DNA of 64,000 nucleotides from Rhodoferax sp. Its GTDB lineage: Bacteria; Pseudomonadota; Gammaproteobacteria; Burkholderiales; Burkholderiaceae_C. The notes under the pieces were generated by a model. That model was not told the origin of the DNA. It did no database searches and was given only the letters and a program-made list of their open reading frames with translations. A program made the position numbers and the translations under genes. The stretch's first letter is position 1. Each line of letters begins with the position of its first letter. The stretch covers positions 2,700 through 66,699 of the forward strand of contig JANOYE010000093.1 of assembly GCA_031428695.1 (NCBI GenBank), given 5' to 3'. This document shows, piece after piece, positions 1 through 38,494 of this stretch.

Positions 1-546
1 CCTGGACTGGACACCCAGGGCCAGCAAATGCCGGCCATCCTGCTGGTCAAACACCAGTCGCAGTACGAAACCTTTCTGCTGCCGCTGATCATGCCGCGCC
101 CGCTTGCCTACGTGTTCAAGAAGGAACTGCTGTATGTGCCGTTTTTCGGCTGGGGCATTGGCCTGCTGGACATGATCCACATCGACCGCAAACTCGGTAA
201 ACTTGCGTTTTCGAAAGTGGCCGAACAAGGCAAACGCCTGTTGGCCAGAGGCACCTGGATCATCATGTTTCCTGAAGGCACGCGCATACCACGCGGCAAG
301 GCGGGCCAGTACAAATCCGGCGGCACGCGTTTGGCCATCGAAACCGGGGCGCCAGTGGTTCCCATAGCGGTCACCTCGGCCAAGTGCTGGCCGCGCAAGG
401 CCTTCACCAAGCGGCCGGGCATCGTCGATGTGTCGATCGGCAAACCGATTTCAAGCCTGGGCCGAACGCCCGACGAATTGCTGACGGAAGTGCAAACCTG
501 GATCGAGTCCGAAATGCACCGGCTCGACCCAGAAGCCTACCGATGA
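1..546 (+). CDS. 1-acyl-sn-glycerol-3-phosphate acyltransferase (PlsC family), 5' end cut by window edge
   Basis: The frame is open from nt 1 (track ORF 28..546). Acyltransferase blocks KHQSQYET (HX4D/E-type) and FPEGTR are present, plus PVVPIAV. Confidence 0.8.
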   Translation, partial: PGLDTQGQQMPAILLVKHQSQYETFLLPLIMPRPLAYVFKKELLYVPFFGWGIGLLDMIHIDRKLGKLAFSKVAEQGKRLLARGTWIIMFPEGTRIPRGKAGQYKSGGTRLAIETGAPVVPIAVTSAKCWPRKAFTKRPGIVDVSIGKPISSLGRTPDELLTEVQTWIESEMHRLDPEAYR

Positions 547-1529
547 ACCCCCTGCGAAGCCTGCTGCAAATGACGCTGGACATGTTTGAGCCAGCGCCGG
601 AGAAAAGGCCGCCCAAAGCTGATTTGATTGGAAAACGTAAAGAAAATCGTCCTCCAAGTCACGTATTAATTGCACAATACGCTCCTGAAAATATAGCAAC
701 TGACAGCGGCTTTCGCGCCGAACCGTTGCAAGACGTGATGGCGCCAGCCAACTTTCGCCATCCCCGCGCCAACCGCGAATCCCGCTTGCGCGACGCGCTG
801 GTCGCTTACGAATTCAAGCGGGCCCGTCGCCGCACCATCGGGTTTCAGGTGGGTGCGGACGGCCTGGTTGTCAGCGCCCCCAACTGGGTTCCTCTCTATG
901 AGGTGGAGGCCGCGCTGCAGGAGAAAGCCGCTTGGGTGCTGAAAAAGCTCGACGAAACCCGCGTGCGCAAGGCGCAGCTCGACGCCAACCGCATTGAATG
1001 GCGCGATGGCACCAATTTGCCGTTTTTGGGAGAGCAAGTCATCGTGGTGCTCGACCCACGCCATGCGTTTGGCGATGTGGGCGCTGTGCTGCACACCGAT
1101 GAAGCTGCGCCCAACCTCACGCTGGCCGGTGTGCCACGCCTGACGCTGCATGTGGCTCTGCCGCACAACGCCTCGCCCACGCAGATTCGCGACGCCGTGC
1201 AGGCCTGGTTGATGCGCCAGGCAAAACGCGTGTTCATTGAGCGGCTCAACCACTACGGGCCGCTCCTAGGCGTGCAATGGAAAAAACTCTCCTTGAGCAG
1301 CGCTGGCACGCGATGGGGCAGCGCCAGCGCCGATGGTTCCATCCGCCTGAACTGGCGGCTCATTCATTTCAACCAGTCGGTGATCGACTACGTGGTGGCC
1401 CATGAGCTGAGCCATCTGCGCGTGATGGACCACAGCCCGCGATTTTGGGACACGGTGGCAACGGTCGTACCCGACTACGCCCACCTGCGCCACCAGCTCA
1501 AAGACGATTCATTGCCGCGTTGGAACTGA
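543..1529 (+). CDS. YgjP-like DUF45/M48-fold zinc metallohydrolase; start uncertain (ATG 543 or ATG 738)
   Basis: C-terminal HELSHLRVMDHSPRFW (HExxH) is typical of YgjP/DUF45. ATG 543 overlaps the plsC stop as ATGA. The first ~65 codons are AT-rich and carry repeat copy E, so ATG 738 (MAPANFRH) is an alternative start. Confidence 0.75.
   Translation: MNPLRSLLQMTLDMFEPAPEKRPPKADLIGKRKENRPPSHVLIAQYAPENIATDSGFRAEPLQDVMAPANFRHPRANRESRLRDALVAYEFKRARRRTIGFQVGADGLVVSAPNWVPLYEVEAALQEKAAWVLKKLDETRVRKAQLDANRIEWRDGTNLPFLGEQVIVVLDPRHAFGDVGAVLHTDEAAPNLTLAGVPRLTLHVALPHNASPTQIRDAVQAWLMRQAKRVFIERLNHYGPLLGVQWKKLSLSSAGTRWGSASADGSIRLNWRLIHFNQSVIDYVVAHELSHLRVMDHSPRFWDTVATVVPDYAHLRHQLKDDSLPRWN
655..699 (+). repeat. 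45-bp AT-rich composite motif, copy E
   Basis: CAAGTCACGT-N16-GCTCCTGAAAATA-TAGCAA. It aligns column for column with the eight other copies (see findings). Confidence 0.7.
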
Positions 1530-1530
1530 C

Positions 1531-2628
1531 ATGTCGCGGCGGCGCTACCTGTGGAACTTCCTTGTCGGCCTGGCGCTTGCCGCACATGCACCCTTGGCGT
1601 TTGCTCAGGAAAAGCAGTGGGAGCGCGCGTTTGATGTTATTTACGAAACGCAGTGGCAACAGTCTGGTATTTTGGATGGCGTAAAGCGTTGGCCAGCGCG
1701 TCAGGACAAGGTTTTGACGTTCACCATCAACGTCGGCGCGAGTTCGTCGAATGCTGATCGCGCGCGCAGCGCCTTGGCGCGTGTGCTGGCGGTTCTGGAC
1801 ATGACGACACGTGAATTGGTGGCGGGTGATGAAACCGCGCAAATCCAGTTCGACATCCGCCGTTTTGCGCCAGAAGAGCTGCTCCAGCATGCCTGTTACG
1901 CGCAATCGACCTCAAGCGGCGGTCAGCTCAGCCGAGTCAAGCTGGTGCTCAATGAGCCGTCGACCTATTGGTGCGTGCTGCACGAGTTGATGCATGCCAT
2001 GGGGCTTCCGGGCCATCCGCAGGGCGATACTGTGTTGAGCTACTTTGAGGGCAACCGGCTGTCATTGAAGCCAATTGACGAATTTCTGCTCAGGGCCTGG
2101 TACACCGACGGCATCAAGCCGGGCATGTCGCCGCTGGTCGCCGTGCGGATCATCAACCGCATGTGGATCGAGCAATCTCTGGCGCCGCAAGAGCAGGCCA
2201 GGGCGGCGTTGGTGGAGCGGCAATGGTACGAACGGACAATTGCTGGTTTGGAGGCCTTTGCCAATGGCGCGGGTGAGCCGCCATTGATTTTGTTTCGTTC
2301 CGGAAAGCTCAATGCGACGGGCATGAAAATGGGCCAGATGAACGTGCAGTCGATACTCGGATTTTCGTACTTTAACGGCCTGTCCGTGGCGCAAGACCGC
2401 ATCAAAGGCGCAGGTTATATGCTGAAGGCGGCCCAAAATGGCAACCGCAATGCGGTTGCCAATCTGTTGCGGGTGTTGGCCATCGCGGATTTACCAGTCG
2501 AGGTGTCAGCGACCCTGTGTAAGTGGTTCGCAACGGCAGCTGTCGAAGAAACCGGCCTGACCAAACCTGCGCAGGATCAGGCGTTGGCCTCAGCAGCATG
2601 CAAGCCAGGCACCGACTCAAACCGGTAG
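1531..2628 (+). CDS. Secreted putative zinc metalloprotease with C-terminal Sel1-like repeats
   Basis: N-terminal signal peptide (LALAAHAPLAFAQE). Zincin/metzincin-like HELMHAMGLPGH. C-terminal Sel1-like segment GFSYFNGLSVAQDRIKGAGYMLKAAQNGNRNAVANL. Confidence 0.6.
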   Translation: MSRRRYLWNFLVGLALAAHAPLAFAQEKQWERAFDVIYETQWQQSGILDGVKRWPARQDKVLTFTINVGASSSNADRARSALARVLAVLDMTTRELVAGDETAQIQFDIRRFAPEELLQHACYAQSTSSGGQLSRVKLVLNEPSTYWCVLHELMHAMGLPGHPQGDTVLSYFEGNRLSLKPIDEFLLRAWYTDGIKPGMSPLVAVRIINRMWIEQSLAPQEQARAALVERQWYERTIAGLEAFANGAGEPPLILFRSGKLNATGMKMGQMNVQSILGFSYFNGLSVAQDRIKGAGYMLKAAQNGNRNAVANLLRVLAIADLPVEVSATLCKWFATAAVEETGLTKPAQDQALASAACKPGTDSNR

Positions 2629-3698
2629 ACGCCGCCAGAATCGCGCTTGCGGGCAAGTTTTCCCTCAAACCACAACTTGTGCAGATGCGCCACCGCCTCG
2701 CCCAGGGCGAAAGTCATCTGGTGCAAATCCAACTCTCGTTTGAACATCACCGGCACGACATCGGCCGCGCTGGCGGATGTGTTGGCGCACAGGTCGATCA
2801 CCTCGGCCAGCCGCGCGGTATGGTGCAGGTGAAGTTGCTCGATGCGCCGGTGCAGCCCGGTGAACGGTTTGCCGTGGGCGGGCAGCGTCAAGGTGTCGGG
2901 GGGCAAGCGCCTGAACTTGTCGATGGAGTCGAGAAACTGCGTCAGCGGGTTGGACTCAGGCTCGTTGTCGTGCACGCTCACATTGGTGGAAATGCGCGGC
3001 AGCATCATGTCGCCGCCAATCAGCACTTGGAGGTCAGGGCAATACAGCGCGATGTGCTCCGGCGCGTGGCCATAACCGCTGATGCATTGCCAGGCGCGCC
3101 CGCCAATCTGGATTGAATCGCCATCTTGCATGCGGCGAAAACTGCGCGGCATGGTCGGCACCAGGTTGGTGAAGTAGTTGGTGCGGGCGCGGATTTGCGC
3201 CAGGTGATCGGGGCTACTCATGCCGTGGGCGGCGAAAAATTCTGCCGCATGGCCACCACCACCAAAATTCATCGGCATCACCGAGGCCATCTGCGCCACG
3301 CCAAAATCCGTCGCGCTGATCCACAGGCGGCAGGTGTGCGCCGGCGTGCTCCAGCGCTCGCAAAGCCAGCCGGCCAGGCCGATGTGGTCCGGGTGCATGT
3401 GGGTGCAGATCACGCGCAGGATGGGAAGCCCCTCCAGCTCGCGCTCAAAAATTTGCCGCCATTGGGCGCGCGACTCTTCCTGGGAAATGCAGGTGTCAAC
3501 CACCGTCCAACCCTGGAGTTTGCCGCCGCCGCTGGCGCTTTCCAACTCATCGCGAATCAGCCAAAGGTTGATGTGGTTCAGCGCAAAGGGTAGGCCCATG
3601 CGAATCCATTTGATGCCGTCTGCCACACCAAGCGTTGTGCCCAGCTCGGGCAACGTGTCGCCCAATGGGTAGTGAAGCTCTCGTTCGAGTTCGTTCAT
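2577..3698 (-). CDS. MBL-fold metallo-hydrolase
   Basis: HxHxDH motif (CTHMHPDHIGL). The start is placed at ATG 3698 (MNELEREL) because the 52 upstream codons of track ORF 2577..3854 run across the liuR operator region. Confidence 0.8.
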   Translation of the reverse strand: MNELERELHYPLGDTLPELGTTLGVADGIKWIRMGLPFALNHINLWLIRDELESASGGGKLQGWTVVDTCISQEESRAQWRQIFERELEGLPILRVICTHMHPDHIGLAGWLCERWSTPAHTCRLWISATDFGVAQMASVMPMNFGGGGHAAEFFAAHGMSSPDHLAQIRARTNYFTNLVPTMPRSFRRMQDGDSIQIGGRAWQCISGYGHAPEHIALYCPDLQVLIGGDMMLPRISTNVSVHDNEPESNPLTQFLDSIDKFRRLPPDTLTLPAHGKPFTGLHRRIEQLHLHHTARLAEVIDLCANTSASAADVVPVMFKRELDLHQMTFALGEAVAHLHKLWFEGKLARKRDSGGVYRFESVPGLHAAEANA

Positions 3699-3747
3699 TG
3701 GGGGGAGTCTTTTTGGCGAGCGGTTTTGACTGATAATTCGGCTTGAG

Positions 3748-3769
3748 TTGACGTTTACGTAAACGTCAA
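3748..3769. promoter_or_regulatory. Candidate LiuR (MerR-family) operator
   Basis: Perfect 22-bp palindrome TTGACGTTTAC|GTAAACGTCAA in the divergent MBL/liuR intergenic region. Confidence 0.6.
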
Positions 3770-3841
3770 CTGACCAACCCATTGTAGAGGCGGCTGGCTT
3801 TGGACCCTGTCGCCAATTTGCCGCCCACTTCCACCCGCCAC

Positions 3842-4270
3842 ATGAGCACTGCAACTTTCACCATCAGCGATTTGGCGCGGGAATTCGACCTCACCACCCG
3901 GGCCATCCGGTTCTACGAGGATATGGGCCTGTTGGAGCCGGTGCGCACCGGCCCTGGCGGGCGCAGCCGCATCTACAGCGGGCGAGATCGCACGCGGCTG
4001 AAGCTGACGTTGCGGGCAAAACGCCTCGGGCTGTCGCTCACCGAGGCCAAAGACATCATTGACATGTACGACAGCCCGCGAGACACCGGCGCGCAACTGA
4101 AGAAATTTCTCGCCGTGCTGGCCGCGCACCGGGCGCAAATCGAAGAACAATTGGCGGAATTGCAGGCCAATCTCGAAGAAGTGAAAACCCACGAGAAAGA
4201 GGCCCGCGCGCTGCTCCTAAAAATTGGAAAATCAGACAACGACCTTGCTCTGAAAAAGGAATCAACATGA
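3842..4270 (+). CDS. liuR: MerR-family transcriptional regulator LiuR
   Basis: N-terminal MerR HTH ([26 protein letters not shown]) and a coiled-coil C-terminus. It lies immediately upstream of isovaleryl-CoA dehydrogenase with a 4-nt ATGA overlap. Confidence 0.8.
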
Positions 4271-5526
4271 ACCTGCCCGGCCTTGACTTCCAGCTCGGCG
4301 ACGACATCAACGCGCTGCGCGACGCTGTGCGCGAATTCGCGCAGATTGAGATCGCACCGCGCGCCGCCGACATCGACAAAAACGACCAGTTCCCTATGGA
4401 CGTGTGGCGCAAGCTCGGGGATTTGGGCGTGCTCGGCATTACGGTGGCCGAAGAGTACGGCGGTGCGGGCATGGGGTACCTTGCTCACATGATCGCCATG
4501 GAGGAAATCTCCCGCGCGTCCGCCTCAGTGGGCCTGTCTTACGGCGCCCACAGCAACCTGTGTGTGAACCAGATCAACCGCAATGGCACCGAGGCGCAGA
4601 GGCGCAAATACCTGCCCAAACTGATCAGCGGAGAGCATGTCGGCGCATTGGCCATGAGCGAGCCGGGCGCGGGCAGCGATGTCATCAGCATGAAACTCAA
4701 AGCGGAAGACAAAGGCGGCTACTTCCTGCTCAATGGCAGCAAGATGTGGATCACCAACGGCCCGGACGCCGACACTTTGGTCGTCTACGCCAAGAGCGAA
4801 CCTGAGGATGGCCCCCACGCTTCGCGCTTCGCGTCTTCGCTGCCCCCCGAGGGGGCTGTTTCGGCTCGGGGCGGCCCAGCGCCGAAACGCGGCGCCAATC
4901 ACATTACCGCCTTCCTGATCGAAAAGGGGATGAAGGGTTTCAGCGTCGCGCAAAAGCTGGACAAACTCGGCATGCGCGGCAGCCACACTGGCGAGCTGGT
5001 GTTCAACAACGTCGAGGTGCCGGCGCAAAATGTGTTGGGCGGCCTCAACAATGGCGCCAAGGTGCTGATGAGCGGGCTCGACTACGAACGCGCCGTGCTC
5101 ACCGGTGGGCCGCTGGGGATCATGCAGTCGGTGATGGACAACATCATCCCGTACATCCATGACCGCAAACAGTTTGGCCAAAGCATCGGCGAGTTTCAGC
5201 TGATCCAGGGCAAAGTGGCTGACATGTACACCGTGCTGCAGGCCGGGCGCTCATTCGCTTATACGGTGGCGAAAAACCTCGACATGCTGGGCGCTGAACA
5301 TGTGCGCCGCGTGCGCAAGGACTGCGCTTCCGTCATTCTCTGGACAGCCGAAAAAGCCACCTGGATGGCCGGCGAAGGCGTGCAGATTTTCGGCGGCAAC
5401 GGCTACATCAACGACTACCCGCTGGGCCGCCTGTGGCGCGACGCCAAGTTGTATGAGATTGGCGCTGGCACCAGTGAAATTCGCCGCATGTTGATCGGGC
5501 GGGAATTATTTGCTGAAACGATGTAG
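4267..5526 (+). CDS. liuA: Isovaleryl-CoA dehydrogenase, carrying a ~27-aa in-frame insertion
   Basis: Full-length acyl-CoA dehydrogenase similarity with IVD-type blocks ([44 protein letters not shown]). liu gene context. Confidence 0.9.
4813..4893 (+). repeat. GC-rich hairpin-containing (REP-like) 81-bp in-frame insertion inside liuA
   Basis: Tandem CGCTTCG heptamers. Hairpin GCCCCC-cga-GGGGGC (4842-4856). Hairpin GTTTCGGC-N15-GCCGAAAC (4858-4888). Encodes [27 protein letters not shown], which is absent from the canonical IVD YAK...GITAF loop. Confidence 0.5.
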
Positions 5527-5538
5527 ATGCGGCCAGCC

Positions 5539-5562
5539 TATAATGATCACATTGTAATTACA
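5539..5562 (+). promoter_or_regulatory. Putative mazEF promoter -10 box plus operator palindrome
   Basis: TATAAT at 5539-5544 and the 10-bp palindrome TGTAATTACA at 5553-5562, directly upstream of mazE. Confidence 0.4.
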
Positions 5563-5572
5563 TCGCCAATCC

Positions 5573-5815
5573 ATGCAAACACATATCGTCCCCATCGGCA
5601 ACTCGCTCGGCTTGCGGTTGCCTAAGGCGGTGCTTGAGTCGCTGCATCTCGTTCGCGCATCGGCGCTGAGCATCCAGGTGCGCGCTGACAGCATCGTGCT
5701 CAGGCCGCTCAAGTCGCCGAGGAAAAATTGGGCTGAAGCCTTTGCCGCCGAACCTGCAGCCGAGGGTGAAAACCTCTGGGGCGATATGCCCTTGGCCGAA
5801 GCCTGGGACGAATAA
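5573..5815 (+). CDS. mazE: AbrB/MazE/SpoVT-family antitoxin
   Basis: MQTHIVPIGNSLGLRLPKAVLESL swapped-hairpin motif. It lies 2 nt upstream of a PemK/MazF toxin gene. Confidence 0.8.
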   Translation: MQTHIVPIGNSLGLRLPKAVLESLHLVRASALSIQVRADSIVLRPLKSPRKNWAEAFAAEPAAEGENLWGDMPLAEAWDE

Positions 5816-5817
5816 GC

Positions 5818-6162
5818 ATGGCGACGCGGCCGGCGGCAGAGCGAAGTTTCCCCCGCCAGGGCGAGGTTTGGTGGGTCAACCTTGACCCAGCCGTGGGCAA
5901 GGAGATCAGCAAAAGGCGGCCCTGCCTGATCGTGTCGCCTGACGACATGAATGAACACCTGGCCACCGTGATCGCAGCGCCCATCACCAGCACCCTGCGA
6001 GAGTGGCCGACCCGCGTGAAAATCCGGCTGCAACGGCAAACCAGCTCGATCGCCCTGGATCAAATGCGGTCTGTTGACCGCGCCAGACTGGTCAAAAAAA
6101 TGACGGCCATCGACCCTGAACCCACGCTTGAAGTGCTGCGTGAAATGTTTGAAAAACCATGA
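5818..6162 (+). CDS. mazF: PemK/MazF-family endoribonuclease toxin
   Basis: GEVWWVNLDPAVGKEISKRRPCLIVSPDDMN and ITS..REWPTRV blocks typical of MazF/PemK. Confidence 0.85.
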   Translation: MATRPAAERSFPRQGEVWWVNLDPAVGKEISKRRPCLIVSPDDMNEHLATVIAAPITSTLREWPTRVKIRLQRQTSSIALDQMRSVDRARLVKKMTAIDPEPTLEVLREMFEKP

Positions 6163-6818
6163 CCAACTCGATCCAAAACCTCTTTGACCACAACCGTGCC
6201 TGGGCCAGCGCCATAGCGCGCGAGCGCCCCGGCTTTTTCACCAACCTGAAGAACCAGCAGTCGCCCAAATACATGTGGATTGGCTGCTCAGACAGCCGCG
6301 TGCCGGCCAACCAGATTACTGGGCTTGAGCCGGGCGAAGTGTTCGTGCACCGCAACGTGGCGAACATCGTGGTGCATTCGGATTTGAACGCGCTCTCAAC
6401 GATTCAATTTGCGGTGGAGCGCCTCAAAGTGCAGCATGTGATGGTGGTGGGCCACTTCGGCTGTTCGGGTGTGCAGGCGGCCCTTGAAGGCGCGCGCATT
6501 GGGCTGGCTGACAACTGGCTGCGCCACATCCAAGACGTGCGGGATCGCCATCGTGGGTTGATCGAATCGTTGCCTGAAACCGTGCGGCACGATGCGCTGG
6601 TGAAACTCAATGTGATCGAGCAGGTGGTGCATGTGGCGCAAAGCACGGTGTTGCAAGACGCTTGGAGCCGAGGGCAAGTGGTGACGCTGCACGGCTGGGT
6701 GTACGGTGTGCATGACGGTTTGCTGCAAGACCTGGAAATGTCAGTTGCTGGGCTGGATTCCCTGGATGGCCAATATCTCAAAGCTGTTGAGGCTGTAAGT
6801 CTCGTAAAACCTGCGTAA
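6159..6818 (+). CDS. can: Beta-class carbonic anhydrase
   Basis: WIGCSDSRVPANQITGLEPGEVFVHRNVANIV and VVGHFGCSGV zinc-ligand blocks, collinear with E. coli Can. Confidence 0.9.
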   Translation: MTNSIQNLFDHNRAWASAIARERPGFFTNLKNQQSPKYMWIGCSDSRVPANQITGLEPGEVFVHRNVANIVVHSDLNALSTIQFAVERLKVQHVMVVGHFGCSGVQAALEGARIGLADNWLRHIQDVRDRHRGLIESLPETVRHDALVKLNVIEQVVHVAQSTVLQDAWSRGQVVTLHGWVYGVHDGLLQDLEMSVAGLDSLDGQYLKAVEAVSLVKPA

Positions 6819-6840
6819 TCAGCTTCAATAAACATAGCAA
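6796..6840 (+). repeat. 45-bp AT-rich composite motif, copy I (spans the can stop codon)
   Basis: TAAGTCTCGT-N16-GCTTCAATAAACA-TAGCAA. The first 14 nt after the initial base are identical to copy H. Confidence 0.7.
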
Positions 6841-6852
6841 CTTCCAGTCACC

Positions 6853-8748
6853 ATGGCCACCAGCATGTTCCCCCAGCGGCTTGATTCAAGCCTGGCCTAT
6901 GACATCGCCAAAGCGATGATGGACGGCTTCAACCGCCACTACCGCTTGTTCCGCACCGAATCCGCGCGCGCCAAACACCGCTATGAAGTGGCAGATTGGC
7001 ACGGCCAGCAACGCGCCCAGCGCGAGAGAATCGAGTTTTACGACCTGCGTGTCAAAGAGTGCTCGACCCGGCTGGAGCGCGAATTCAAAGCCGACGACCA
7101 GCCGATGGACATCTGGCAACAAGTCAAGCTGCATTACATTGGCCTCTTGGTGAACCACCACCAGCCGGAATTGGCTGAGACGTTTTTCAATTCGGTCACC
7201 ACCAAAATCTTGCACCGCACGCACTTTCACAACGACTTCATCTTTGTGCGCCCGGCGGTCAGCACCGAATACATCGAGAACGGCGAACCCGAGGCCCGCC
7301 CCACTTACCGCGCCTAATACCCAACGCGCGAGACCATGCAGCCGGTGATCACCCAATTGGTGCGCGATTTCGACCTGCGGGTTGAGTTTGAAGACCTGGA
7401 GCGCGATGCCGACTTTGTCGTAACTGCGATGGGCGCGCGCCTGCAGAACGCGACGGTGCGCGCCAATTTCCAGATCCAGGTATTAACCAGCCTCTTCTTT
7501 CGCAACAAGGGCGCCTATGTGGTGGGCAAGCTGATCAACGGGTTCAACGAGTTTCCGTTCGCGCTGCCAATCCTGCACATCGAGCAAGATGATGAGGCGC
7601 TTCCCCGCTTGGTGATCGACGCCGCGCTGTTTGGCGAAGACGATCTGCTCATGTTGTTCAGTTTCGCCCGTGCCTACTTCATGGTGGACATGGAGATTCC
7701 TTCGGCCTACGTGCAGTTTCTGCGCAGCATGATGCCGCGCAAGCCGCGCAACGAAATTTACAGCGCGTTGGGGCTGCAAAAGCAGGGCAAGACGCTGTTC
7801 TACCGCGATTTCCTGCACCACCTGCGCCATTCGAGCGACCAATTTCGCATTGCCCCTGGCATCAAGGGCATGGTGATGCTGGTGTTTGATTTGCCGTCTT
7901 TCCCCTATGTGTTCAAGGTCATCAAAGACTTTTATCCACCGCAAAAAGACACAACGCGCGAGCAGATCCAGGGCAAATAATTACTGTTCTAACAGCACGA
8001 CCGCGTAGGCCGCATGGCCGACACACTCGAATACAGCGAGGTGGCCTTCCCGCGCGAACGTTTTGAAGACGAGTTGATTGAGGAGATCAAGAAGTTCGCT
8101 CCGAGCCAGCTTGAAATCAGCGACCGGGACGCTGATGGCCGCGTCGAGGTGATCATCAAACACGTCTACATCGAGCGGCGCATGATTCCGCTGAACATCT
8201 ATTTGCAGGAAGCCTTTGACGCCGGTGGTGCAAAGCTGCACTCGCCCGGCGCCGAGTCAGACACAACGGCTGAGCCGGCGCCCGAAACGACACGTGCGCG
8301 CGAGCAGATCGAACGCGGCGTCATCGAATACGGCAACGCCATCAAAGACCTTGTCGCCGCCAACATCTTCCCCGGCGACATGTTGTGGAAAAACTTCGGC
8401 ATCACGCGCCATGGCAAGGTGGTGTTTTACGACTACGACGAGATCGAATACATCACTGACTGCAACTTCCGCAAGGTGCCCGAGCCGCGCAACGAAGAAG
8501 ACGAAATGAGCGGCGAAGTTTGGTACAAAGTCGGCCCCAAAGACGTGTTCCCCGAAACCTTCGGGCCTTTCTTGCTGGGCAACCCGGCAGTGCGTGGCGT
8601 CTTCATGAAACACCACGCTGATTTGCTGGAGGCCGCTTTCTGGCAGGGCCACAAAGAGCGCATTCAGGCCGGGCACGTGTTTGACGTGTTCCCCTACGAG
8701 CAGGAAAAGCGGTTTGCGCGGGGTCCGACCGCCGGGGTGCCCGCATGA
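6853..8748 (+). pseudogene. aceK: Isocitrate dehydrogenase kinase/phosphatase interrupted by three in-frame TAA codons
   Basis: Three collinear frame-1 ORFs (6853..7317, 7336..7980, 8014..8748) together cover full-length AceK ([83 protein letters not shown]). They are separated only by TAA at 7315-7317, 7978-7980 and 7990-7992, with no frameshift. Confidence 0.85.
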
Positions 8749-9233
8749 TCTCGCGAGACACCTGGGAGCTGTGGAGTTTTATCGTTACCACGTTGGGCTT
8801 GCCGTTCGGCATCGGCATTTTTCTGTGGCAGCAACGCAAAGAGCGCGAAAACGAAGACGAAGAGGGATACCAGTTGCTGTCGGACGCCTACAACGATTTT
8901 TTGAAAGTGGTGCTGGCGCATCCCGACCTTCAGTTGCGCAGCAACGAGCCGCTGCAGAACCGCTCATCTGAGCAAAACGAACGCATGCTGGTGGTTTTCG
9001 ACATGTTGATTTCGCTTTTCGAGCGGGCCTACCTGGTGGCTTACAAGCCCACAATGAGCGAAGAAGAGCGACGCCGCTGGAACAGCTGGGACGACTACAT
9101 GCGTGAATGGTGCCGCCGGGATGATTTCCATAATGCGATGCCCTTGTTATTGCGCGGCGAAGACCCTGATTTTCAGGCCTACATTCGCCGCGTGGCCACC
9201 CAAGAGCGCGGAAGTTTGATCCAATCGGGGTAG
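8745..9233 (+). CDS. Hypothetical protein with one N-terminal transmembrane helix
   Basis: 162-aa ORF whose ATG overlaps the aceK stop (ATGA). Hydrophobic [22 protein letters not shown] is followed by a charged soluble region. I do not recognise the family. Confidence 0.5.
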
Positions 9234-9266
9234 CGCCCAGCGGCTGTGGCCCACGCTCCCAACCTG

Positions 9267-9308
9267 TACATCTGCCCTTACATCCACCTTTACATCCACC
9301 TTTACATC
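9267..9308 (+). repeat. Four phased 12-bp direct repeats (TACATC core)
   Basis: TACATC at 9267, 9279, 9291 and 9303, exactly 12 bp apart. Units 2 and 3 are identical (TACATCCACCTT). The array ends 3 nt before the thiolase AGGAG Shine-Dalgarno. Confidence 0.6.
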
Positions 9309-9322
9309 TCAGGAGTATCCAA

Positions 9323-10504
9323 ATGAATGATCCCATCGTCATCGTCGGCGCAGCCCGCACCCCTATGGGCGCTTTTCAGGGAGATTTTTCCTCCCTGTCA
9401 GCCCATGATCTGGGCGGCGTGGCGATCAAGGCCGCTGTGGCCCGTGCTGGCATTTCGGCCGATGCCGTCAATGAAGTGCTGTTTGGCAATTGCCTGATGG
9501 CGGGCCAGGGCCAGGCGCCGGCCCGCCAGGCGGCCTTCAAAGGCGGTTTGCCCAACAGTGCGGGCGCTGTCACACTGTCCAAAATGTGCGGCTCAGGCAT
9601 GAAGGCGGCCATGTTCGCACACGACATGTTGCTGGCCGGCACGCATGAGGTGATGGTGGCAGGTGGCATGGAGAGCATGACCAACGCGCCGCATTTGCTG
9701 CTCAAGGGCAGGAGCGGCATCCGCATCGGGCACGACCGCGTGATGGACCACATGATGCTCGACGGCTTGGAAGACGCTTACGAAGCAGGCCGCTCCATGG
9801 GCACGTTTGGCGAAGAATGCGCAGCCAAATACAACTTCACGCGCGAGCAACAAGACGCGTTTGCCACCGCGAGTGTGCAGCGCGCCCAGAAGGCGACCAC
9901 GTCGGGCGCCTTCTCGGCAGAAATGGCCCCGGTCACAGTGAAGGGCCGTGCCGGCGACACGGTGATTTCGATTGACGAAGGCCCAGGCAAGATCAAGCTC
10001 GACAAAATTCCCGCTTTGAAGGCGGCGTTCAAAAAAGACGGCACCATCACGGCGGCCAGCAGCTCCAGCATCAATGATGGCGCGTCTGCGCTGGTGATGA
10101 TGCGCGAATCGACCGCGAAGAAGTTCGGCTGCAAACCGCTGGCCAAAATTGTCGCCCATGCCATGCACGCACAAGAGCCCAACTGGTTCACCACGGCGCC
10201 GGTTGGTGCTGTTCAAAAGGTTTTGGCCAAAGCGGGCTGGAGCGTCAAAGACGTGCAGTTGTGGGAGGTGAACGAAGCCTTTGCCGTGGTGCCGATGGCG
10301 CTGATGAAGGAGTTGGGCGTCAGCCACGACATCGTCAACGTCAACGGCGGCGCTTGCGCGCTGGGGCACCCCATTGGCTCGAGCGGCTCGCGCATCATGG
10401 TGACGCTGATGTATGCCATGCAGGCGCGCGGGCTCAAAAAAGGCGTGGCGACACTGTGCATTGGCGGCGGTGAGGGCACGGCCTTGGCGCTGGAGATGGT
10501 TTAA
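9323..10504 (+). CDS. Acetyl-CoA C-acetyltransferase (thiolase II)
   Basis: Thiolase signatures LSKMCGSGMKA (active-site Cys), NVNGGACALGHPIGSSG and CIGGGEGTAL. AGGAG RBS. Confidence 0.9.
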   Translation: MNDPIVIVGAARTPMGAFQGDFSSLSAHDLGGVAIKAAVARAGISADAVNEVLFGNCLMAGQGQAPARQAAFKGGLPNSAGAVTLSKMCGSGMKAAMFAHDMLLAGTHEVMVAGGMESMTNAPHLLLKGRSGIRIGHDRVMDHMMLDGLEDAYEAGRSMGTFGEECAAKYNFTREQQDAFATASVQRAQKATTSGAFSAEMAPVTVKGRAGDTVISIDEGPGKIKLDKIPALKAAFKKDGTITAASSSSINDGASALVMMRESTAKKFGCKPLAKIVAHAMHAQEPNWFTTAPVGAVQKVLAKAGWSVKDVQLWEVNEAFAVVPMALMKELGVSHDIVNVNGGACALGHPIGSSGSRIMVTLMYAMQARGLKKGVATLCIGGGEGTALALEMV

Positions 10505-10566
10505 ATGCTGAAAATAATCGTGTATTATGAATATTTGTGTTTATTATGATTATTTTACGTTTTGAT

Positions 10567-10611
10567 AATCATCTAAATATATAGCAAATATTTAAATAAA
10601 TACGTGACTTA
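10567..10611 (-). repeat. 45-bp AT-rich composite motif, copy A (partial: lacks the distal TAGC)
   Basis: Minus strand reads TAAGTCACGT-N16-GCTATATATTTAG-ATGATT. It lies in the AT-rich island 10505-10684. Confidence 0.7.
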
Positions 10612-10684
10612 AACCAGCTAATAGTGTATCTCTATATTTGAAAAATATTTATTTCATGCTTAAGCGCAAGCTTCGATCCATCCT

Positions 10685-11812
10685 GTGATCCTCTCCTCTG
10701 AACAAGAAATGGTTCGCGATGCCTTGCGCGAGTTTGCGCAAGCGGAGTTGTGGCCCAACGCTGCGCGCTGGAGCCACGAGCGGCACTTTCCAAGAGAAGC
10801 CCTGCGGGGCCTGGCCAAGCTGGGCGCCTACGGCATCTGTGTGCCGGAAGAGTTTGGCGGGGCGAACCTCGACTACCTTTCACTGGCCCTGGTGCTCGAA
10901 GAAATCGCGGCGGGCGATGGCGGCACCAGCACCATCATCAGCGTGACGAACTGCCCTGTGAACGCCATCCTGCTGAACTACGGCAGCGCCGAGCAGAAGA
11001 AAAAATGGCTGACGCCGCTTGCGCAAGGCAAGTTGCTCGGCGCGTTTTGCCTGACCGACCCGCACGTGGGCTCGGACGCCTCGTCCCTGAAAACCACGGC
11101 AGTGAAGGTGGGTGGCGACTATGTGATCAACGGCGTCAAGCAGTTCATCACCAGCGGTAAAAACGGCGACGTCGCCATCGTTATTGCAGTCACCGACAAA
11201 GGCGCAGGCAAAAAAGGCATGAGCGCCTTTTTGGCGCCCACCGATTCACCCGGTTACGTAGTGGCACGTCTTGAAGACAAGATGGGCCAGCACAGCAGCG
11301 ACACGGCGCAGATCAATTTCGACAACTGCCACGTGCCCAGCGAGAATTTGATTGGTCAAGAGGGCGAGGGCTACAAAATTGCCTTGGGCGGCTTGGAAGG
11401 CGGGCGCATCGGCATTGCCGCGCAAAGCGTTGGCATGGCGCGCAGCGCGCTCGACTGCGCCATTGCCTATGCCAAAGAGCGCACAAGTTTTGGCCAAAAC
11501 ATCTTCAGCCACCAGGCGGTGGGTTTTCGGCTCGCCGACTGCGCCACGCAGCTCGAAGCGGCGCGGCAACTGATCTGGCACGCCGCATCGCTGCGCGATG
11601 CTGGCAGGCCCTGCCTGAAAGAAGCCGCGATGGCCAAGCTTTTTGCCAGTGAAATGGCCGAGCGGGTAAGCAGCGCCGCGCTCCAGACGCTTGGCGGTTA
11701 CGGGTATGTGAGCGACTTTCCGGTCGAACGCATCTGCCGCGACGTGCGGGTGTGCCAGATTTACGAAGGCACCTCCGACATCCAGAAAATGATCATCCAA
11801 CGCAGCCTTTGA
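10685..11812 (+). CDS. Acyl-CoA dehydrogenase (short/branched-chain type)
   Basis: Full-length ACAD similarity ([32 protein letters not shown]). GTG start at 10685; the next ATG is at 10709. Confidence 0.9.
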
Positions 11813-11818
11813 GTCCAA

Positions 11819-13114
11819 GTGCCCTCCCCAAGCGCCCTCCCCATGACCCAGAAACTGACCGCCGAGCAGGTAATGAGCTTGTTGCACGAGAACCTGGGCG
11901 CCGCCGTCAGCATCATGGATCGGGAGTTCAACCTCAGATACGTCAATGTCGGATTCGCGCAAGGCTTTGATGAAAACCCGCAGGCGCTGGTGGGCCGCAA
12001 CATTCGAGACGTCTACAGCGATTCCGACTTCGCCGAATTTTCGCCTCATCTGTACCGCGCCTTGTCCGGCGAAACAGTGAGTTACGAGCGGGTAGGGCGG
12101 CTGCGCCAGCGCCGCGCCATCTGGCGCACGGTGTCTTTGTCGCCCTGGCGGGATGCCGGGGGCGGCGTCGCCGGCATCGTCATGTCGTCGCTTGCTGTGC
12201 ATGAGCTCATGGTTGCCACCGATTCGCTGCGCGCAGCCAATGAACGGCTGTCATCACACATGGACAACAGTCCGTTGACGGTATTTGAGTTCGATGCCGA
12301 TTTGCGTGTCACGCGGGTCTCCAGCCGCGTGCAGGAGCTGCTGGGAATGCAGCCCTCGGAGGTTGTCGGGCACGGGTTGTGGGCGGTGGTGGGCCAAGAG
12401 CCGCAGTCCGAAGACTTGAGGGCCGCGTTCGCCCGCTTGCAGAGCGGCGAAGAAACCAGCAACCGGGTCGTCTCAACACACCGCCGCGCCGATGGCGCCA
12501 AGGTATTTTGCGAATGGTTCAATTCCGCCTTGATGGGGGTCGACGGACAGGTGAGCTCCTTGATGTGCCTGGTGGAAGACCGCACCCTGCGCGTGCTGGC
12601 CGAGTCGCAATTGCGCGTGCTGGCGATGACAGACCAACTCACCGGGTTGCCCAACCGCACGGCGTTCATCGAGAAGCTCAAAGGCTCGTTGACCCGTGCC
12701 GTGCGAAGCCGTCAGGCGGTGGTGCTGCTCTTCATCGACCTGGATGGATTCAAGAGCGTGAACGACAACTTCGGCCATGCCAGCGGCGACGAAGTGCTGC
12801 GCGAAGTGGCGCGGCGCCTTCAAAGCGCCATCCGGGACTCCGACGCAGTGTGCCGCATGGGGGGCGACGAATTCGTGGTGCTGCTCGACACCGAGGTGCA
12901 GGAGGCCACGGCCGAACGCATGTGCAAGCGCATCTTGGCCGTGCTGGGGCCGCCGTGTGTGTTCAGCAATGGGCAGGCTTATGTCGGCGCGTCGATTGGT
13001 GTGGCCAGGCAGCCGCCCTTGTTTGTTCAGCCGCATGAGCTGCTGCAACGGGCGGATGCTGCCATGTACGAGGCCAAGCGCGCGGGCAAAGGCAGGGTGA
13101 GTTTCGCCACTTGA
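11819..13114 (+). CDS. PAS-domain diguanylate cyclase (GGDEF)
   Basis: Two PAS-like segments followed by a GGDEF domain (LTGLPNRTAF, RMGGDEFVVLL) with an RxxD I-site (RDSD) 5 residues upstream. The start codon is uncertain. Confidence 0.85.
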   Translation: MPSPSALPMTQKLTAEQVMSLLHENLGAAVSIMDREFNLRYVNVGFAQGFDENPQALVGRNIRDVYSDSDFAEFSPHLYRALSGETVSYERVGRLRQRRAIWRTVSLSPWRDAGGGVAGIVMSSLAVHELMVATDSLRAANERLSSHMDNSPLTVFEFDADLRVTRVSSRVQELLGMQPSEVVGHGLWAVVGQEPQSEDLRAAFARLQSGEETSNRVVSTHRRADGAKVFCEWFNSALMGVDGQVSSLMCLVEDRTLRVLAESQLRVLAMTDQLTGLPNRTAFIEKLKGSLTRAVRSRQAVVLLFIDLDGFKSVNDNFGHASGDEVLREVARRLQSAIRDSDAVCRMGGDEFVVLLDTEVQEATAERMCKRILAVLGPPCVFSNGQAYVGASIGVARQPPLFVQPHELLQRADAAMYEAKRAGKGRVSFAT

Positions 13115-13211
13115 CGCCCGGCCAGGCGCAGTGGCATTCGCCGCGTGGCTGCAGGGCAAATAATCCAAACATTCACATAGTCATCTTTCAACCAGCCTTC
13201 AAGGAGCACAT

Positions 13212-13622
13212 ATGCCTATCACCAAGGGCTTCCGGCAATTCGTCGATGAAGCCATGAAAGAAGTCAAGACCTACTCGGTTGCGCAGGTGCAAGCGCGCCT
13301 GGGCCAGCCGGGTGTGCAGATCGTCGATATCCGCGATGTGCGTGAGTTGAACGACGGCACCATCGCGGGCGCATGCCACGCGCCGCGTTGCATGTTGGAG
13401 TTTTGGGTCGATCCAGACTCGCCCTATTTCAAGAAGATGTTCGCCGACGAAAGCAAAGAATTCATTCTGTTTTGCGGCGCTGGCTGGCGCAGCGCGCTGG
13501 CCGCGAAGACCTTGCAAGACATGGGCATGACCAATGTCGCGCATATTGGCGGTGGTTATGGCGATTGGGTCAAAGCCGGTGCACCGACTGAGACGCTGGC
13601 GCAGTACAAAGCCCGCAAATAG
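13212..13622 (+). CDS. Rhodanese-like domain protein
   Basis: 136-aa single rhodanese domain with an active-site loop (LFCGAGWRSA). GGAG RBS. Confidence 0.8.
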   Translation: MPITKGFRQFVDEAMKEVKTYSVAQVQARLGQPGVQIVDIRDVRELNDGTIAGACHAPRCMLEFWVDPDSPYFKKMFADESKEFILFCGAGWRSALAAKTLQDMGMTNVAHIGGGYGDWVKAGAPTETLAQYKARK

Positions 13623-13631
13623 GCGCGCCAC

Positions 13632-14300
13632 ATGACGAGGTTCCAGGCGGTTCTATTTGATTGCGACGGCGTGCTGGTGGACAGCGAGCCCATCACCAAT
13701 GGCGTCTTGCGTGAAATGTTGGCCGAGCGCGGCTGGCACATCACCCAAGAAGAGTGCATGCGCACTTTTGTCGGCAAGGCATTGAAAGATGAAACGGCGC
13801 AGATCGAAAAACGCACCGGCGCTGCCGTGTCCGCGGCGTGGCTTGCCGAATTTGCAGAGCGCCGAAATGCGGCGCTGATGCTGCGCGTTCTGGCGGTTCC
13901 GAACGTGGTTGACGCGGTGCGCCAGATCCACGCGGCTTACCCAGGGCGGATTGCCTGCGCATCAGGCGCCGACCGGCGCAAGGTCGAGTTGCAGCTGCGC
14001 AAAGTCGGGCTGTTTGACTGTTTTGAAGGCCGCATTTTCAGCGGTTATGAAACACCACGATCCAAACCTTTTCCGGATGTGTATTTAGCCGCCGCAGCGG
14101 CACTCGCTGTCGATGCGGCCCATTGTGCGGTGGTGGAAGACACGGTGCCGGGCGTGACCGCCGGCGTCTCGGCCAAATCAACCGTGTTTGCCTATTCGCC
14201 GCCCAGCACGTTTCATGTGAGCCCGCAGCAGTTGCGGCAGGCAGGCGCACATCACCACTTCGTGGACATGGCCCATTTGCCGCCGCTTTTGGTGGCGTGA
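13632..14300 (+). CDS. HAD-superfamily hydrolase (subfamily IA phosphatase-like)
   Basis: Motif I LFDCDGVLVDSE and C-terminal VEDTVPGVTAG. Confidence 0.8.
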   Translation: MTRFQAVLFDCDGVLVDSEPITNGVLREMLAERGWHITQEECMRTFVGKALKDETAQIEKRTGAAVSAAWLAEFAERRNAALMLRVLAVPNVVDAVRQIHAAYPGRIACASGADRRKVELQLRKVGLFDCFEGRIFSGYETPRSKPFPDVYLAAAAALAVDAAHCAVVEDTVPGVTAGVSAKSTVFAYSPPSTFHVSPQQLRQAGAHHHFVDMAHLPPLLVA

Positions 14301-14347
14301 TGGCCTGGCTGCGGAAAATTTAGAAGAAGAACACGGAGAATTTTCAA

Positions 14348-15970
14348 ATGGCGATTCTGGAAACCAAACTCAATGCGCGGTCTGCCGACTTTCTGGCCAA
14401 TGCTGCTGCCATGCGCGCCGTGGTGGAAGACCTGAAAACAAAGATTGCGCAAACCGCTTTGGGCGGCGGCGACGCGGCCCGCGCCAAACACACGGCACGC
14501 GGCAAGTTGTTGCCACGTGAGCGGGTGCAAATGCTGCTCGATCCCGGCACGCCGTTTCTGGAGTTTTCGCCCCTGGCGGCGATGAACATGTACCCCGACC
14601 GTGACGGCACTGACAGCGCCCCGTGCGCGGGTGTGATCACCGGCCTTGGCCGCGTCAGCGGTGTCGATTGCCTGATTGTCTGCAACGACGCCACGGTGAA
14701 AGGCGGCACCTACTACCCCATGACGGTGAAGAAACATTTGCGGGCGCAAGAGATCGCGCAGCAGAATAATTTGCCGTGCATCTATCTGGTTGATTCCGGT
14801 GGCGCGAATCTGCCGAACCAGGACGATGTCTTTCCTGACCGAGACCACTTTGGCCGTATCTTCTACAACCAGGCGAACCTCAGCGCGCAGGGCATCGGCC
14901 AGATCGCCGTGGTGATGGGCTCCTGCACAGCAGGCGGCGCTTATGTGCCTGCGATGAGCGACGAAACCATCATCGTCAAAAACCAGGGCACGATTTTTCT
15001 GGGCGGCCCGCCCTTGGTGAAGGCGGCGATTGGCGAGATTGTGTCGGCGGAAGATTTGGGTGGCGGCGACGTGCACACGCGGTTGTCTGGCGTGGCAGAC
15101 CACTTGGCGCAGAACGACCCGCATGCATTGGCGTTGGCCCGGGCGGCTGTCAAGAATTTGAACAGAAACAAGGTTTCAAGTCTCGTAAAACAAGCGTCAA
15201 TCGCTCCTAAATATGTAGCGAAAGAAATTTACGGCGTCATCCCTGTTGACACCCGAAAACCGTACGACGTGCGCGAAATCATTGCTCGCATTGTTGATGG
15301 CTCCGAGTTTGATGAATTCAAAGCGCGTTTCGGCAGCACGCTGATCTGTGGCTTTGCCCGCATTGAAGGCATGCCCATTGGCATCGTTGCCAACAACGGC
15401 ATTTTGTTCAGCGAATCGGCGCAGAAAGGCGCGCACTTCATCGAGCTGTGTTGCCAGCGCAAGGTGCCGCTGTTGTTCCTGCAAAACATCACCGGTTTCA
15501 TGGTCGGGCGCAAATACGAGAACGAAGGCATTGCCCGCCATGGCGCGAAGATGGTCACCGCTGTGGCCACCGCGCAAGTGCCCAAATTCACCATCATCAT
15601 TGGCGGCAGTTACGGGGCGGGCAACTACGGCATGTGCGGCCGCGCCTATTCGCCGCGCTTTTTGTGGATGTGGCCCAACGCGCGCATCTGCGTGATGGGC
15701 GGCGAGCAGGCCGCCAGCGTGTTGGCCACCGTGCGGCGCGACGGCATCGAGGCCAAAGGCGGAACCTGGAGTACCGATGAGGAGTTGAAATTCAAGCAGC
15801 CTATGCTCGACCAGTTCGCCCTCCAGTCGCATCCTTATTACGCCAGCGCCCGACTGTGGGACGATGGCGTGATCGACCCGGCGGACACGCGGCGCGTGTT
15901 GGGGCTGGCCTTGTCAGCATCGCTGAACGCCCCGATTCCAGATACTAAGTTCGGTGTGTTCCGGATGTGA
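14348..15970 (+). CDS. liuB: Methylcrotonyl-CoA carboxylase, carboxyltransferase (beta) subunit
   Basis: Full-length carboxyltransferase similarity ([41 protein letters not shown]-terminus). liu context. Confidence 0.9.
15177..15221 (+). repeat. 45-bp AT-rich composite motif, copy H (inside the liuB coding sequence)
   Basis: CAAGTCTCGT-N16-GCTCCTAAATATG-TAGCGA. It encodes [16 protein letters not shown] in a variable linker of liuB. Confidence 0.7.
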
Positions 15971-36862: not shown

Positions 36863-38494
36863 TCAATTGGATGACTGCAGCGCCAGGCCCGCGTGTTCCC
36901 GCAGCGGGTGGAAATGGATTTTGGGAAATCGCTCCTGCGCCAGCCGCACGTCATACGGCGACGTGCACAGGAACGCCAGTGTGTCTGCCGCGTCGCGCGC
37001 CATGCGCATGGGGTAGGCCTCGCAGAAGGTTTTCAGCTCGGCCGGTGTATCGGCGGTGATCCAGCGCGCCCCCGTGTACTGGCTGTTTTCCAGCCGAATA
37101 TCGGCATCGTATTCACCCTTGAGCCGGTGCTGCACCACTTCAAACTGCAATTGGCCTACAGCGCCCAGCAACATGTTGCCGCCGATTTCCGGGCGGAACA
37201 CCTGAATGGCGCCTTCTTCGCCCAACTGCGCCAGCCCTTGCTGCAATTGTTTGGTGCGCAAGGGGTTCTTGAGAATCACCGTGGTGAACAACTCGGGCGC
37301 GAAGAAGGGCAGCCCGGTGAATTGCAGGTTGACCGTGCCATCGGTGATGGTGTCGCCCAACTGCACGCCGCCGTGGGTGGTAAAGCCCACAATGTCACCG
37401 GCAAACGCCTCACTCACCGCTTCGCGGCGCTGGCTCATGAAGGTCACCACGCTGGTCGGGCGCAACTCTTTGGCGGTGCGCATCACCTTCAACTTCATGC
37501 CCGGCGTGTATTTGCCCGAGGCCATGCGCACAAAGGCGATGCGGTCGCGGTGGTTGGCGTCCATGTTGGCCTGAACTTTGAAAACCACGCCTGAAAACGC
37601 GTCGTCGTCGGGTTGGATTTCCTTGATCACGGGCTGTTTGTTGACAACAAAGGAGCTGGTGCGTGATTGCGGCGAAGGCGCCAGGTCCACCAACGCGTCC
37701 AGCACCTCCATCACGCCAAAATTATTCACGCCCGAGCCAAAGAAAACCGGTGTTTGTTTGCCTGCCAAAAAGGCCGCATGGTCCCATGCGGGTGACGCGC
37801 CAGTGGCCAGCTCCATGCTTTCCTCGGCGGTTTCAAACTCGTGGCCGAAGCGTTTCACCAGCGCGTCGCGGTCGGCCAGCGGCATCACCGCAAAGTCTTG
37901 CGGCAGGCGTTCGCTGCCGGACTCAAACACCGTCATCGCCTTGGTGCGCAGGTTGATGATGCCGCCAAAAGTCTTGCCTTGCCCCACCGGCCAGGTCATC
38001 GGCACACACGGCATGCCCAGTTCGCGCTCGATTTCGTCCAAGATGTCCAGTGGCTCACGCACTTCGCGGTCCATCTTGTTGACGAAGGTGATGATGGGCG
38101 TGTCGCGTTGCCGGCAAACCTCGATCAGGCGCCGGGTTTGCGCCTCGACGCCGTTGGCCGCGTCAATCACCATCAGGGCCGAATCAACCGCCGTCAGCAC
38201 ACGGTAGGTGTCTTCAGAAAAGTCTTTGTGGCCGGGTGTGTCCAGCAGGTTGACAACGTGGTCGCGGTAAGCCATTTGCATCACGCTGGAGGCCACCGAG
38301 ATGCCGCGCTGCTTTTCAATCTCCATCCAGTCGCTGGTCGCATGCCGCGTTGCCTTGCGCGCCTTGACCGAGCCCGCAATCTGGATCGCACCTGAGAACA
38401 GCAACAGCTTTTCAGTCAGCGTGGTTTTGCCGGCGTCGGGGTGGGAGATGATGGCAAAGGTGCGGCGGCGGCGGGTTTCGGAGGTGAAGGACAA
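36863..38494 (-). CDS. prfC: Peptide chain release factor 3
   Basis: RRRTFAIISHPDAGKTTLTEKLL G1 motif, DTPGHKDF, NKMDR. Full-length RF3 collinearity. Confidence 0.95.
   Translation of the reverse strand: MSFTSETRRRRTFAIISHPDAGKTTLTEKLLLFSGAIQIAGSVKARKATRHATSDWMEIEKQRGISVASSVMQMAYRDHVVNLLDTPGHKDFSEDTYRVLTAVDSALMVIDAANGVEAQTRRLIEVCRQRDTPIITFVNKMDREVREPLDILDEIERELGMPCVPMTWPVGQGKTFGGIINLRTKAMTVFESGSERLPQDFAVMPLADRDALVKRFGHEFETAEESMELATGASPAWDHAAFLAGKQTPVFFGSGVNNFGVMEVLDALVDLAPSPQSRTSSFVVNKQPVIKEIQPDDDAFSGVVFKVQANMDANHRDRIAFVRMASGKYTPGMKLKVMRTAKELRPTSVVTFMSQRREAVSEAFAGDIVGFTTHGGVQLGDTITDGTVNLQFTGLPFFAPELFTTVILKNPLRTKQLQQGLAQLGEEGAIQVFRPEIGGNMLLGAVGQLQFEVVQHRLKGEYDADIRLENSQYTGARWITADTPAELKTFCEAYPMRMARDAADTLAFLCTSPYDVRLAQERFPKIHFHPLREHAGLALQSSN

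Follow-up and report, generated by a model that had tools for sequence, protein, structure and literature searches.

Has the Rhodoferax strain represented by this DNA lost its isocitrate dehydrogenase kinase/phosphatase (AceK), or is it the record of that strain that has been damaged? The question arises from a 64,000-bp window, positions 2700-66699 of contig C93 of a 4.42-Mb metagenome-assembled genome (MAG; 400 contigs, 94% complete, 59.8% GC, N50 17 kb), in which the frame of the only aceK gene of the assembly (6853..8748 of the window, + strand) is interrupted by three TAA codons. What we have here is ordinary and of a known type: a private cluster of nonsense changes that is either a very young lesion or an error of the record, with no new decoding and no new enzyme. 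The changes belong to one class of transversion, and clusters of the same class recur in unrelated genes of the same MAG. We give an even chance to the reading that they are damage-type miscopies fixed into the consensus of this assembly, and a somewhat smaller one to the reading that they are real and very recent mutations.

The aceK frame comprises 631 codons, with stops at codons 155, 376 and 380 (7315-7317, 7978-7980 and 7990-7992) and the natural TGA at 8746-8748. Translation, Pfam matches and allele alignments all bear out the preliminary description of this locus, which had reported three in-frame TAA codons in an otherwise collinear frame without indels. The Pfam domains AceK_regulatory and AceK_kinase are collinear in one frame over the three pieces (1e-46 to 5e-89), the profile coordinates carry on across each stop, and the read-through product matches the Escherichia coli AceK structures 3LC6 and 3EPS at 1e-129. 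The two-domain architecture is that of the bifunctional E. coli enzyme, and the FKVIKD motif with the ATP-binding lysine and a second motif of ten residues are conserved as well; the differences are that the frame of this record is cut at the equivalents of E. coli positions 143, 357 and 361, and that the gene lies in a leucine-catabolic (liu) cluster, whereas E. coli aceK belongs to aceBAK.

Three open reading frames (ORFs) remain on the + strand. Fragment 1 (6853..7314, 154 aa) holds the N-terminal half of the regulatory domain (AceK_regulatory positions 1-135); fragment 2 (7336..7977, 214 aa from the ATG at 7336) holds the remaining regulatory domain and kinase positions 1-47, including the ATP-binding lysine K355; and fragment 3 (8014..8745, 244 aa from the ATG at 8014) holds the rest of the kinase/phosphatase domain without the N-lobe. 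The stops thus part K355 from the rest of the kinase domain, and no single uninterrupted polypeptide has both. Taken at face value, the gene would be dead, there being no piece that combines the ATP-binding lysine with the catalytic kinase/phosphatase part. The possible ATG starts of the three ORFs (6853, 7336, 8014) might suggest a functional split gene, but neither fragment 2 nor fragment 3 amounts to a complete kinase domain, and no such split occurs at the aceK loci of 173 relatives. An old, decaying pseudogene fits no better: there are no frameshifts, there is no excess of missense changes, and just three synonymous differences separate the gene from an intact allele. We consider either form of this explanation next to impossible.

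The 173 loci of Comamonadaceae type (from 80 species-representative genomes, 80 JGI metagenomes, 11 congeners and 2 conspecifics) contain no internal stop. Codon 155 encodes Tyr at 161 of these loci, the others having Trp, Phe or His; Y376, V379 and K380 are each invariant in all 173. The 11 same-genus genes are intact; the four codons that are changed in the window encode Tyr, Tyr, Val and Lys in them, and no indel separates them from the interrupted gene. The nearest allele, encoding the intact 631-aa protein P0023, lies on an 18.7-kb ENA contig (L013) that is 99.78% identical to window positions 1-15704, with 35 mismatches and no gaps. Within aceK the two differ at seven positions, three of them synonymous transitions (7839, 8229, 8433) and four of them transversions, without which the frame encodes P0023. 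The transversions are 7317 C>A, which converts TAC to TAA (7315..7317, Tyr155>stop) in the regulatory domain at a position aligned with E. coli F143; 7980 T>A, which converts TAT to TAA (7978..7980, Tyr376>stop) at the equivalent of E. coli Y357, 21 codons past K355 (the equivalent of E. coli K336); 7987 G>T, a missense change of GTC to TTC (7987..7989, Val379>Phe) at the equivalent of E. coli V360; and 7990 A>T, which converts AAA to TAA (7990..7992, Lys380>stop) at the equivalent of E. coli K361. A second conspecific contig (L014, 99.2% identical) polarises all four as derived in the window. Alignment with the aceK of sister strains had been recommended at the outset, and it reveals intact genes with sense codons at all three sites of interruption.

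The last three transversions form the AT-shifted patch to which the preliminary description drew attention. That its changes are directed toward A/T holds; the estimate of about five substitutions does not, since relative to L013 (AAATATTTACTGGTCAAACAG) the patch carries three in 11 bp (7980, 7987 and 7990), the other A/T bases being present already in the intact sister alleles. The concentration of three of six derived aceK changes within 11 bp has a chance probability of 1.4e-3, as has the occurrence of at least three stops among four changes of purine to T or pyrimidine to A, a class of which 7.1% of all possible changes in aceK give a stop; both values are inflated by ascertainment, the gene having been flagged for its stops in a very large scan (a look-elsewhere effect). 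Apart from the disruptive four, the differences from L013 over 15.7 kb are 22 synonymous, 7 missense and 2 intergenic, with no indels, which reads as normal strain divergence under purifying selection and not as a noisy record. Recent inactivation, a localised mutational event and sequence error, three options raised earlier, all accord with the undecayed state of the rest of the gene and with changes that are private and clustered.

How widely the interrupted allele occurs is less informative than it may seem. The three AceK fragments are recorded as called proteins only on the 68,013-bp contig of this MAG, whereas the 90% cluster to which fragment 3 belongs contains 12 full-length alleles, of which 11 have 631 aa and the twelfth has 644 aa and diverges at the C-terminus. 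A pattern of the patch with N at the three sites had no match among JGI metagenome contigs or GTDB genome contigs. Each of the window proteins with private missense changes that we looked up is, however, also unique to this MAG; because its whole haplotype is absent from other assemblies, the lack of the broken aceK elsewhere is not diagnostic.

Local templates for the changes were sought within the assembly. Replacement of the patch, another suggestion of the preliminary description, found no backing as far as donors within this assembly are concerned, for no second copy of the 15-mer or 19-mer at two or fewer mismatches exists in the whole assembly that could have served as donor in gene conversion; nor does the whole assembly offer a donor for the first site (7317). 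Correction of a hairpin or quasi-palindrome explains at most one of the three patch changes: 7987 G>T perfects a 5-bp inverted repeat (CTGTT..AACAG) with 7990 in its loop, but the change at 7980 disrupts a perfect palindrome of 8 nt (AAATATTT), and the derived sequence folds less stably than the ancestral one (-5.8 versus -7.3 kcal/mol). A link to a dispersed 45-bp AT-rich motif was also rejected, its copy at 6796-6840 being identical in the intact sister allele and dissimilar in sequence to the patch.

A wider comparison, of 87,222 bp of the MAG (parts of C93, C163, C6 and C73) with 99-99.9% identical contigs of other assemblies, places the aceK patch among similar clusters. It yielded 286 private changes: 183 transitions (126 synonymous, 40 missense, no stop, 17 non-coding); 48 changes of purine to T or pyrimidine to A (21 synonymous, 17 missense, 4 stops, 6 non-coding); and 55 other transversions (28 synonymous, 23 missense, no stop, 4 non-coding). 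Runs of at least three consecutive private changes of the purine>T/pyrimidine>A class within 50 bp occur only three times in these 87,222 bp, with spans of 11-60 bp: in aceK, in a CP_ATPgrasp_2/Alpha-E fusion gene and in a gene for a TctC-type protein. Within 39 bp of C163 the fusion gene (887 aa; uninterrupted on 20 other contigs) differs from 6 conspecific contigs by 7057 A>T (N>I), 7073 G>T (a synonymous change) and 7095 G>T (E>TAA). The third cluster turned up without reference to stops (locus L310, 1666-1725) in a 330-aa binding protein of the TctC/Bug family; it comprises 17214 G>T (G>V), 17249 T>A (F>I), 17268 T>A (V>E) and 17273 G>T (V>F) within 60 bp of C163, all four derived relative to one conspecific and 8 congeners, and turns the conserved TctC/Bug motif YGSGGNGSAGHLAGEMFKAQAGVFV (YGSGGNGS...GEMF) into YGSGVNGS..EMIKAQAGEFF. 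Because like clusters lie in at least two other genes, the cause is to be sought genome-wide and is not specific to aceK. The three changes in the fusion gene are all on one strand, and the aceK and TctC clusters mix strands.

The three clusters and the lone change at 7317 together contain 11 changes, all 11 of purine to T or pyrimidine to A, a class that makes up 37 of the 275 other private changes. Ten of the 11 are non-synonymous (4 stops and 6 missense, with 1 synonymous change), as against 20 synonymous and 11 missense among coding changes of this class outside the clusters (one-sided p ~0.002 in a Fisher test worked by hand, ~0.02 without the stops). A label-shuffle test for runs of the class gave weak support (P = 0.09 for at least two runs), because private changes are clumped in recombination tracts, and more weight rests on the contrast between synonymous and non-synonymous changes. 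By this contrast the cluster changes appear to be unselected, unlike the selected background of the record, which would make the aceK stops a by-product of a process and not of selection on aceK. Dense private differences of mixed type, mostly synonymous, were also observed in four tracts of the window (10150-10171, 31572-31731, 33012-33058 and 37150-37171); these resemble short stretches imported by recombination from an allele at a greater distance and are distinct from the transversion clusters.

An adaptive loss of aceK, favoured by selection in this population, would account for the many nonsense changes. Laboratory evolution experiments are known to hit aceK, and stops make up three of its four non-synonymous changes here (for mutations of this class, P = 1.4e-3). 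An excess of stops is, however, expected in a gene picked for its stops. One stop would have been enough, and two stops four codons apart together with a Val-to-Phe change offer selection nothing more; like clusters in unrelated genes yield missense and synonymous changes; and none of the 173 other loci has lost aceK. Adaptive loss is for these reasons an improbable explanation.

Other interrupted genes of the MAG were sought in two ways. A reference-free scan used a genome-wide codon log-odds score followed by Pfam: at loose thresholds it gave 630 candidates, mostly false, in which the share of TAA was as in true terminators, and at strict thresholds with Pfam it confirmed aceK, the CP_ATPgrasp gene, guaB and kynA, the other candidates that were checked against Pfam being gene boundaries. 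Comparison by homology, which covered about 15% of the proteome and 1.2 Mb of a congener (G017), contributed just one more, a DctP-like gene. The in-frame TAA of the CP_ATPgrasp_2 gene (C163:7095) and the in-frame TAG of guaB (IMP dehydrogenase; C85:6447, CAG>TAG, a lone C>T) are private to the MAG, and fragments of aceK, CP_ATPgrasp and guaB occur in this MAG only. The other two interruptions, a TGA in kynA (tryptophan 2,3-dioxygenase; C163, minus strand) and a TAG and a TGA, separated by 72 bp and next to an L>R change, in the gene for the DctP-like binding protein (C249:25847 and 25919), give truncated products that recur in several NCBI, Logan and ENA assemblies, which marks them as real pseudogenes that are shared within the species; kynA also has intact alleles. 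Besides its stop, guaB has 59 synonymous changes and 1 missense change relative to its relatives, whose identity of only 96% suffices to polarise the stop and not to look for clusters.

With these genes in hand, the possibility that TAA is decoded, by recoding, suppression or programmed read-through, so that full-length AceK is made, can be judged very remote. The frame does stay open and conserved past each stop, as decoding would require, but TAA terminates 174 of 679 strongly coding ORFs (26%); the sites are Tyr, Tyr and Lys in relatives, and Glu in the ATP-grasp gene, so that no single recoded meaning would fit; 99.8% identical sister strains have ordinary sense codons at the sites; and in-frame TAG and TGA are also present in the MAG. 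No tRNA with a UUA anticodon and no suppressor tRNA is among the 33 tRNAs found, which are an incomplete set. The initial judgement that recoding is unlikely, made from the use of TAA as a normal stop elsewhere in the window, is thereby strengthened: TAA ends about a quarter of strongly coding ORFs, and the sites differ in amino acid.

There remain error in the record and real, very recent mutation. DNA polymerases may insert dAMP opposite a purine or an abasic site (the A-rule, as in SOS-type transversions), with the result that a purine is replaced by T or a pyrimidine by A. All 11 cluster-associated changes would fit the G:C>T:A and A:T>T:A classes of such mutagenesis at abasic sites, at a density of 3-4 changes per 11-60 bp that is much above what is known for A-rule or SOS bypass in vivo. 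About half of them are G>T or C>A and in that respect resemble 8-oxoguanine artefacts and MutY/MutM spectra, likewise of damage type and unselected; the other half are A>T or T>A and are not explained by 8-oxoguanine, and the known oxidative library artefacts have a low allele fraction and are not clustered. Spurious or very young pseudogenes with internal stops, as found in draft genomes and MAGs, similarly combine private stops with an otherwise pristine and constrained gene and with sense codons in near-identical sequences; tight clusters of one transversion class, and three stops in one gene, set the present case apart from them.

The explanation to which we give even odds is that the clusters are miscopies of damaged template. 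During library preparation A would have been inserted opposite a purine or an abasic site, and the miscopies would have been taken up into contigs where coverage was locally low, through duplicates or by iterative assembly. Stop codons begin with T and are A-rich, so changes of purine to T or pyrimidine to A often make stops in a gene of 60% GC. The changes are private to one record, show no trace of selection and recur elsewhere in that record, in support of this explanation, from which we infer an origin of the clusters outside the living lineage; the real aceK of the organism would then most likely be intact, like those of its 99.8% identical sisters. Sister samples were prepared with NEBNext Ultra II FS enzymatic fragmentation, sequenced on NovaSeq and assembled by iterative MEGAHIT in IMP3 (PMC9021309); the pipeline behind this MAG may differ. 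Several points weigh against consensus error. The record is otherwise accurate, with no gaps in 15.7 kb and a background under selection; aceK lies about 10 kb inside the longest contig of the MAG (68,013 bp), which argues against very low coverage; four errors could enter a short-read consensus only if most reads carried them; the patch is not accounted for by any inverted-repeat or fold-back source; and the haplotype is unique to the MAG, so that the absence of the broken allele elsewhere says little. Nor do we know of a sequencing chemistry from which G>T and A>T would both arise.

If instead the changes are real, to which we assign a probability a little short of even, the dominant clone of the sample has a newly formed aceK pseudogene, the product of one or two events of error-prone bypass of clustered lesions; an SOS or ImuABC-type polymerase, for instance, would have read across abasic sites or damaged purines according to the A-rule, and the other two clusters and the guaB nonsense change would have hitch-hiked as parts of one mutational burst in a clonal bloom. 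The cleanness of the assembly elsewhere, where private changes bear purifying selection, and the position of the locus deep inside a 68-kb contig favour this reading. So does the class of the 11 cluster-associated changes, which is the one that A-insertion opposite purines or abasic sites would produce; the aceK lesions fall on both strands within 10 bp, as they may at multiply damaged sites; and the species has other real nonsense pseudogenes in several assemblies, namely kynA and the DctP-like gene. Against it, the error density in the clusters (7-27%) is far above that generally known for polymerases on undamaged DNA. Some 20-50 clusters per genome are implied (a rough estimate from one cluster found other than by stops per 87 kb, two stop-bearing clusters from a partial scan and a stop chance of about 20% per cluster), with dozens of radical changes at conserved residues and several nonsense codons, a heavy load for a dominant free-living strain. 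Constraint is strong on guaB (59 synonymous changes to 1 missense) and on aceK (173 of 173 loci intact), and none of these alleles occurs in any independent assembly.

One speculative form of the real-mutation reading, which we regard as rather unlikely, traces the clusters to mutation showers in a Rhodoferax cell in the wild, which may have lain dormant in ice or sediment for a long time. Its DNA would have lost purines at closely spaced positions, or have had multiply damaged sites of the radiation type, and an error-prone polymerase would have bypassed these by inserting A; several conserved genes would have been lost at once, aceK three times over, and the clone would then have bloomed on the stream bed. 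Overall, consensus error takes about half of our confidence, real mutation a large part of the other half, and everything else a small remainder.

The setting of the gene is conserved. The nearest named genomes are Rhodoferax and Polaromonas MAGs, many of them from glacier-fed streams (records named "GL.." and "BUSI22"). In the window a leucine-catabolic cluster (4267-10504) encodes a MerR/LiuR regulator, isovaleryl-CoA dehydrogenase, MazEF, beta-carbonic anhydrase, AceK, the product of orf162, thiolase and acyl-CoA dehydrogenase; the order liuR-ivd-mazEF-can-aceK-orf162-thiolase is the same in sister strains, including L013, and neither aceA nor aceB adjoins aceK. The beta-carbonic anhydrase gene can (6159..6818, + strand, identified by Pfam) ends 34 bp before aceK. 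Downstream, orf162 (8745..9233, + strand; 162 aa, without a Pfam family) begins with an ATG that overlaps the TGA of aceK, and this ATGA overlap, pointed out in the preliminary description, is real; the identical protein sequence (P0091) occurs in other assemblies, on 6 contigs in NCBI and ENA. Elsewhere the MAG has four genes of the Iso_dh family; its isocitrate lyase is represented by the C-terminal 215 aa only, cut by the end of a 2,024-bp contig (C126); and no match to the malate synthase Pfam family was found in the 94% complete MAG.

Two further observations concern the assemblies themselves. At C119:4429 the stop of an epimerase-like ORF is followed at once, in the same frame, by a DctP domain that starts only at position 69 of the profile, which is either a truncated gene or a chimeric contig join. 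Two proteins on ENA contigs from other samples (P0015 and P0050) end in '...LSLIHI', which we take to be translated Nextera adapter at contig ends.

The useful by-product of this analysis is the recognition in this MAG of a recurrent, unselected cluster signature of the purine>T type. It carries a warning, for short A/T-directed clusters in a record create false "pseudogenes" and false radical variants in conserved genes, and a metabolic reconstruction could wrongly deny the organism control by AceK at the glyoxylate branch point, or class it as auxotrophic for guanine. Clusters that proved real would document an unusual clustered transversion process in nature; and if mutation showers were their source, nature would have preserved in them the bypass of clustered lesions and the sudden loss of genes through multiple nonsense changes in an environmental population. 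For the organism itself, a real loss of aceK would leave isocitrate dehydrogenase unphosphorylated and permanently active, so that less isocitrate would enter the glyoxylate shunt when the cells grow on acetate or on acetyl-CoA from leucine, and orf162, which overlaps the aceK stop, would lose its translational coupling.

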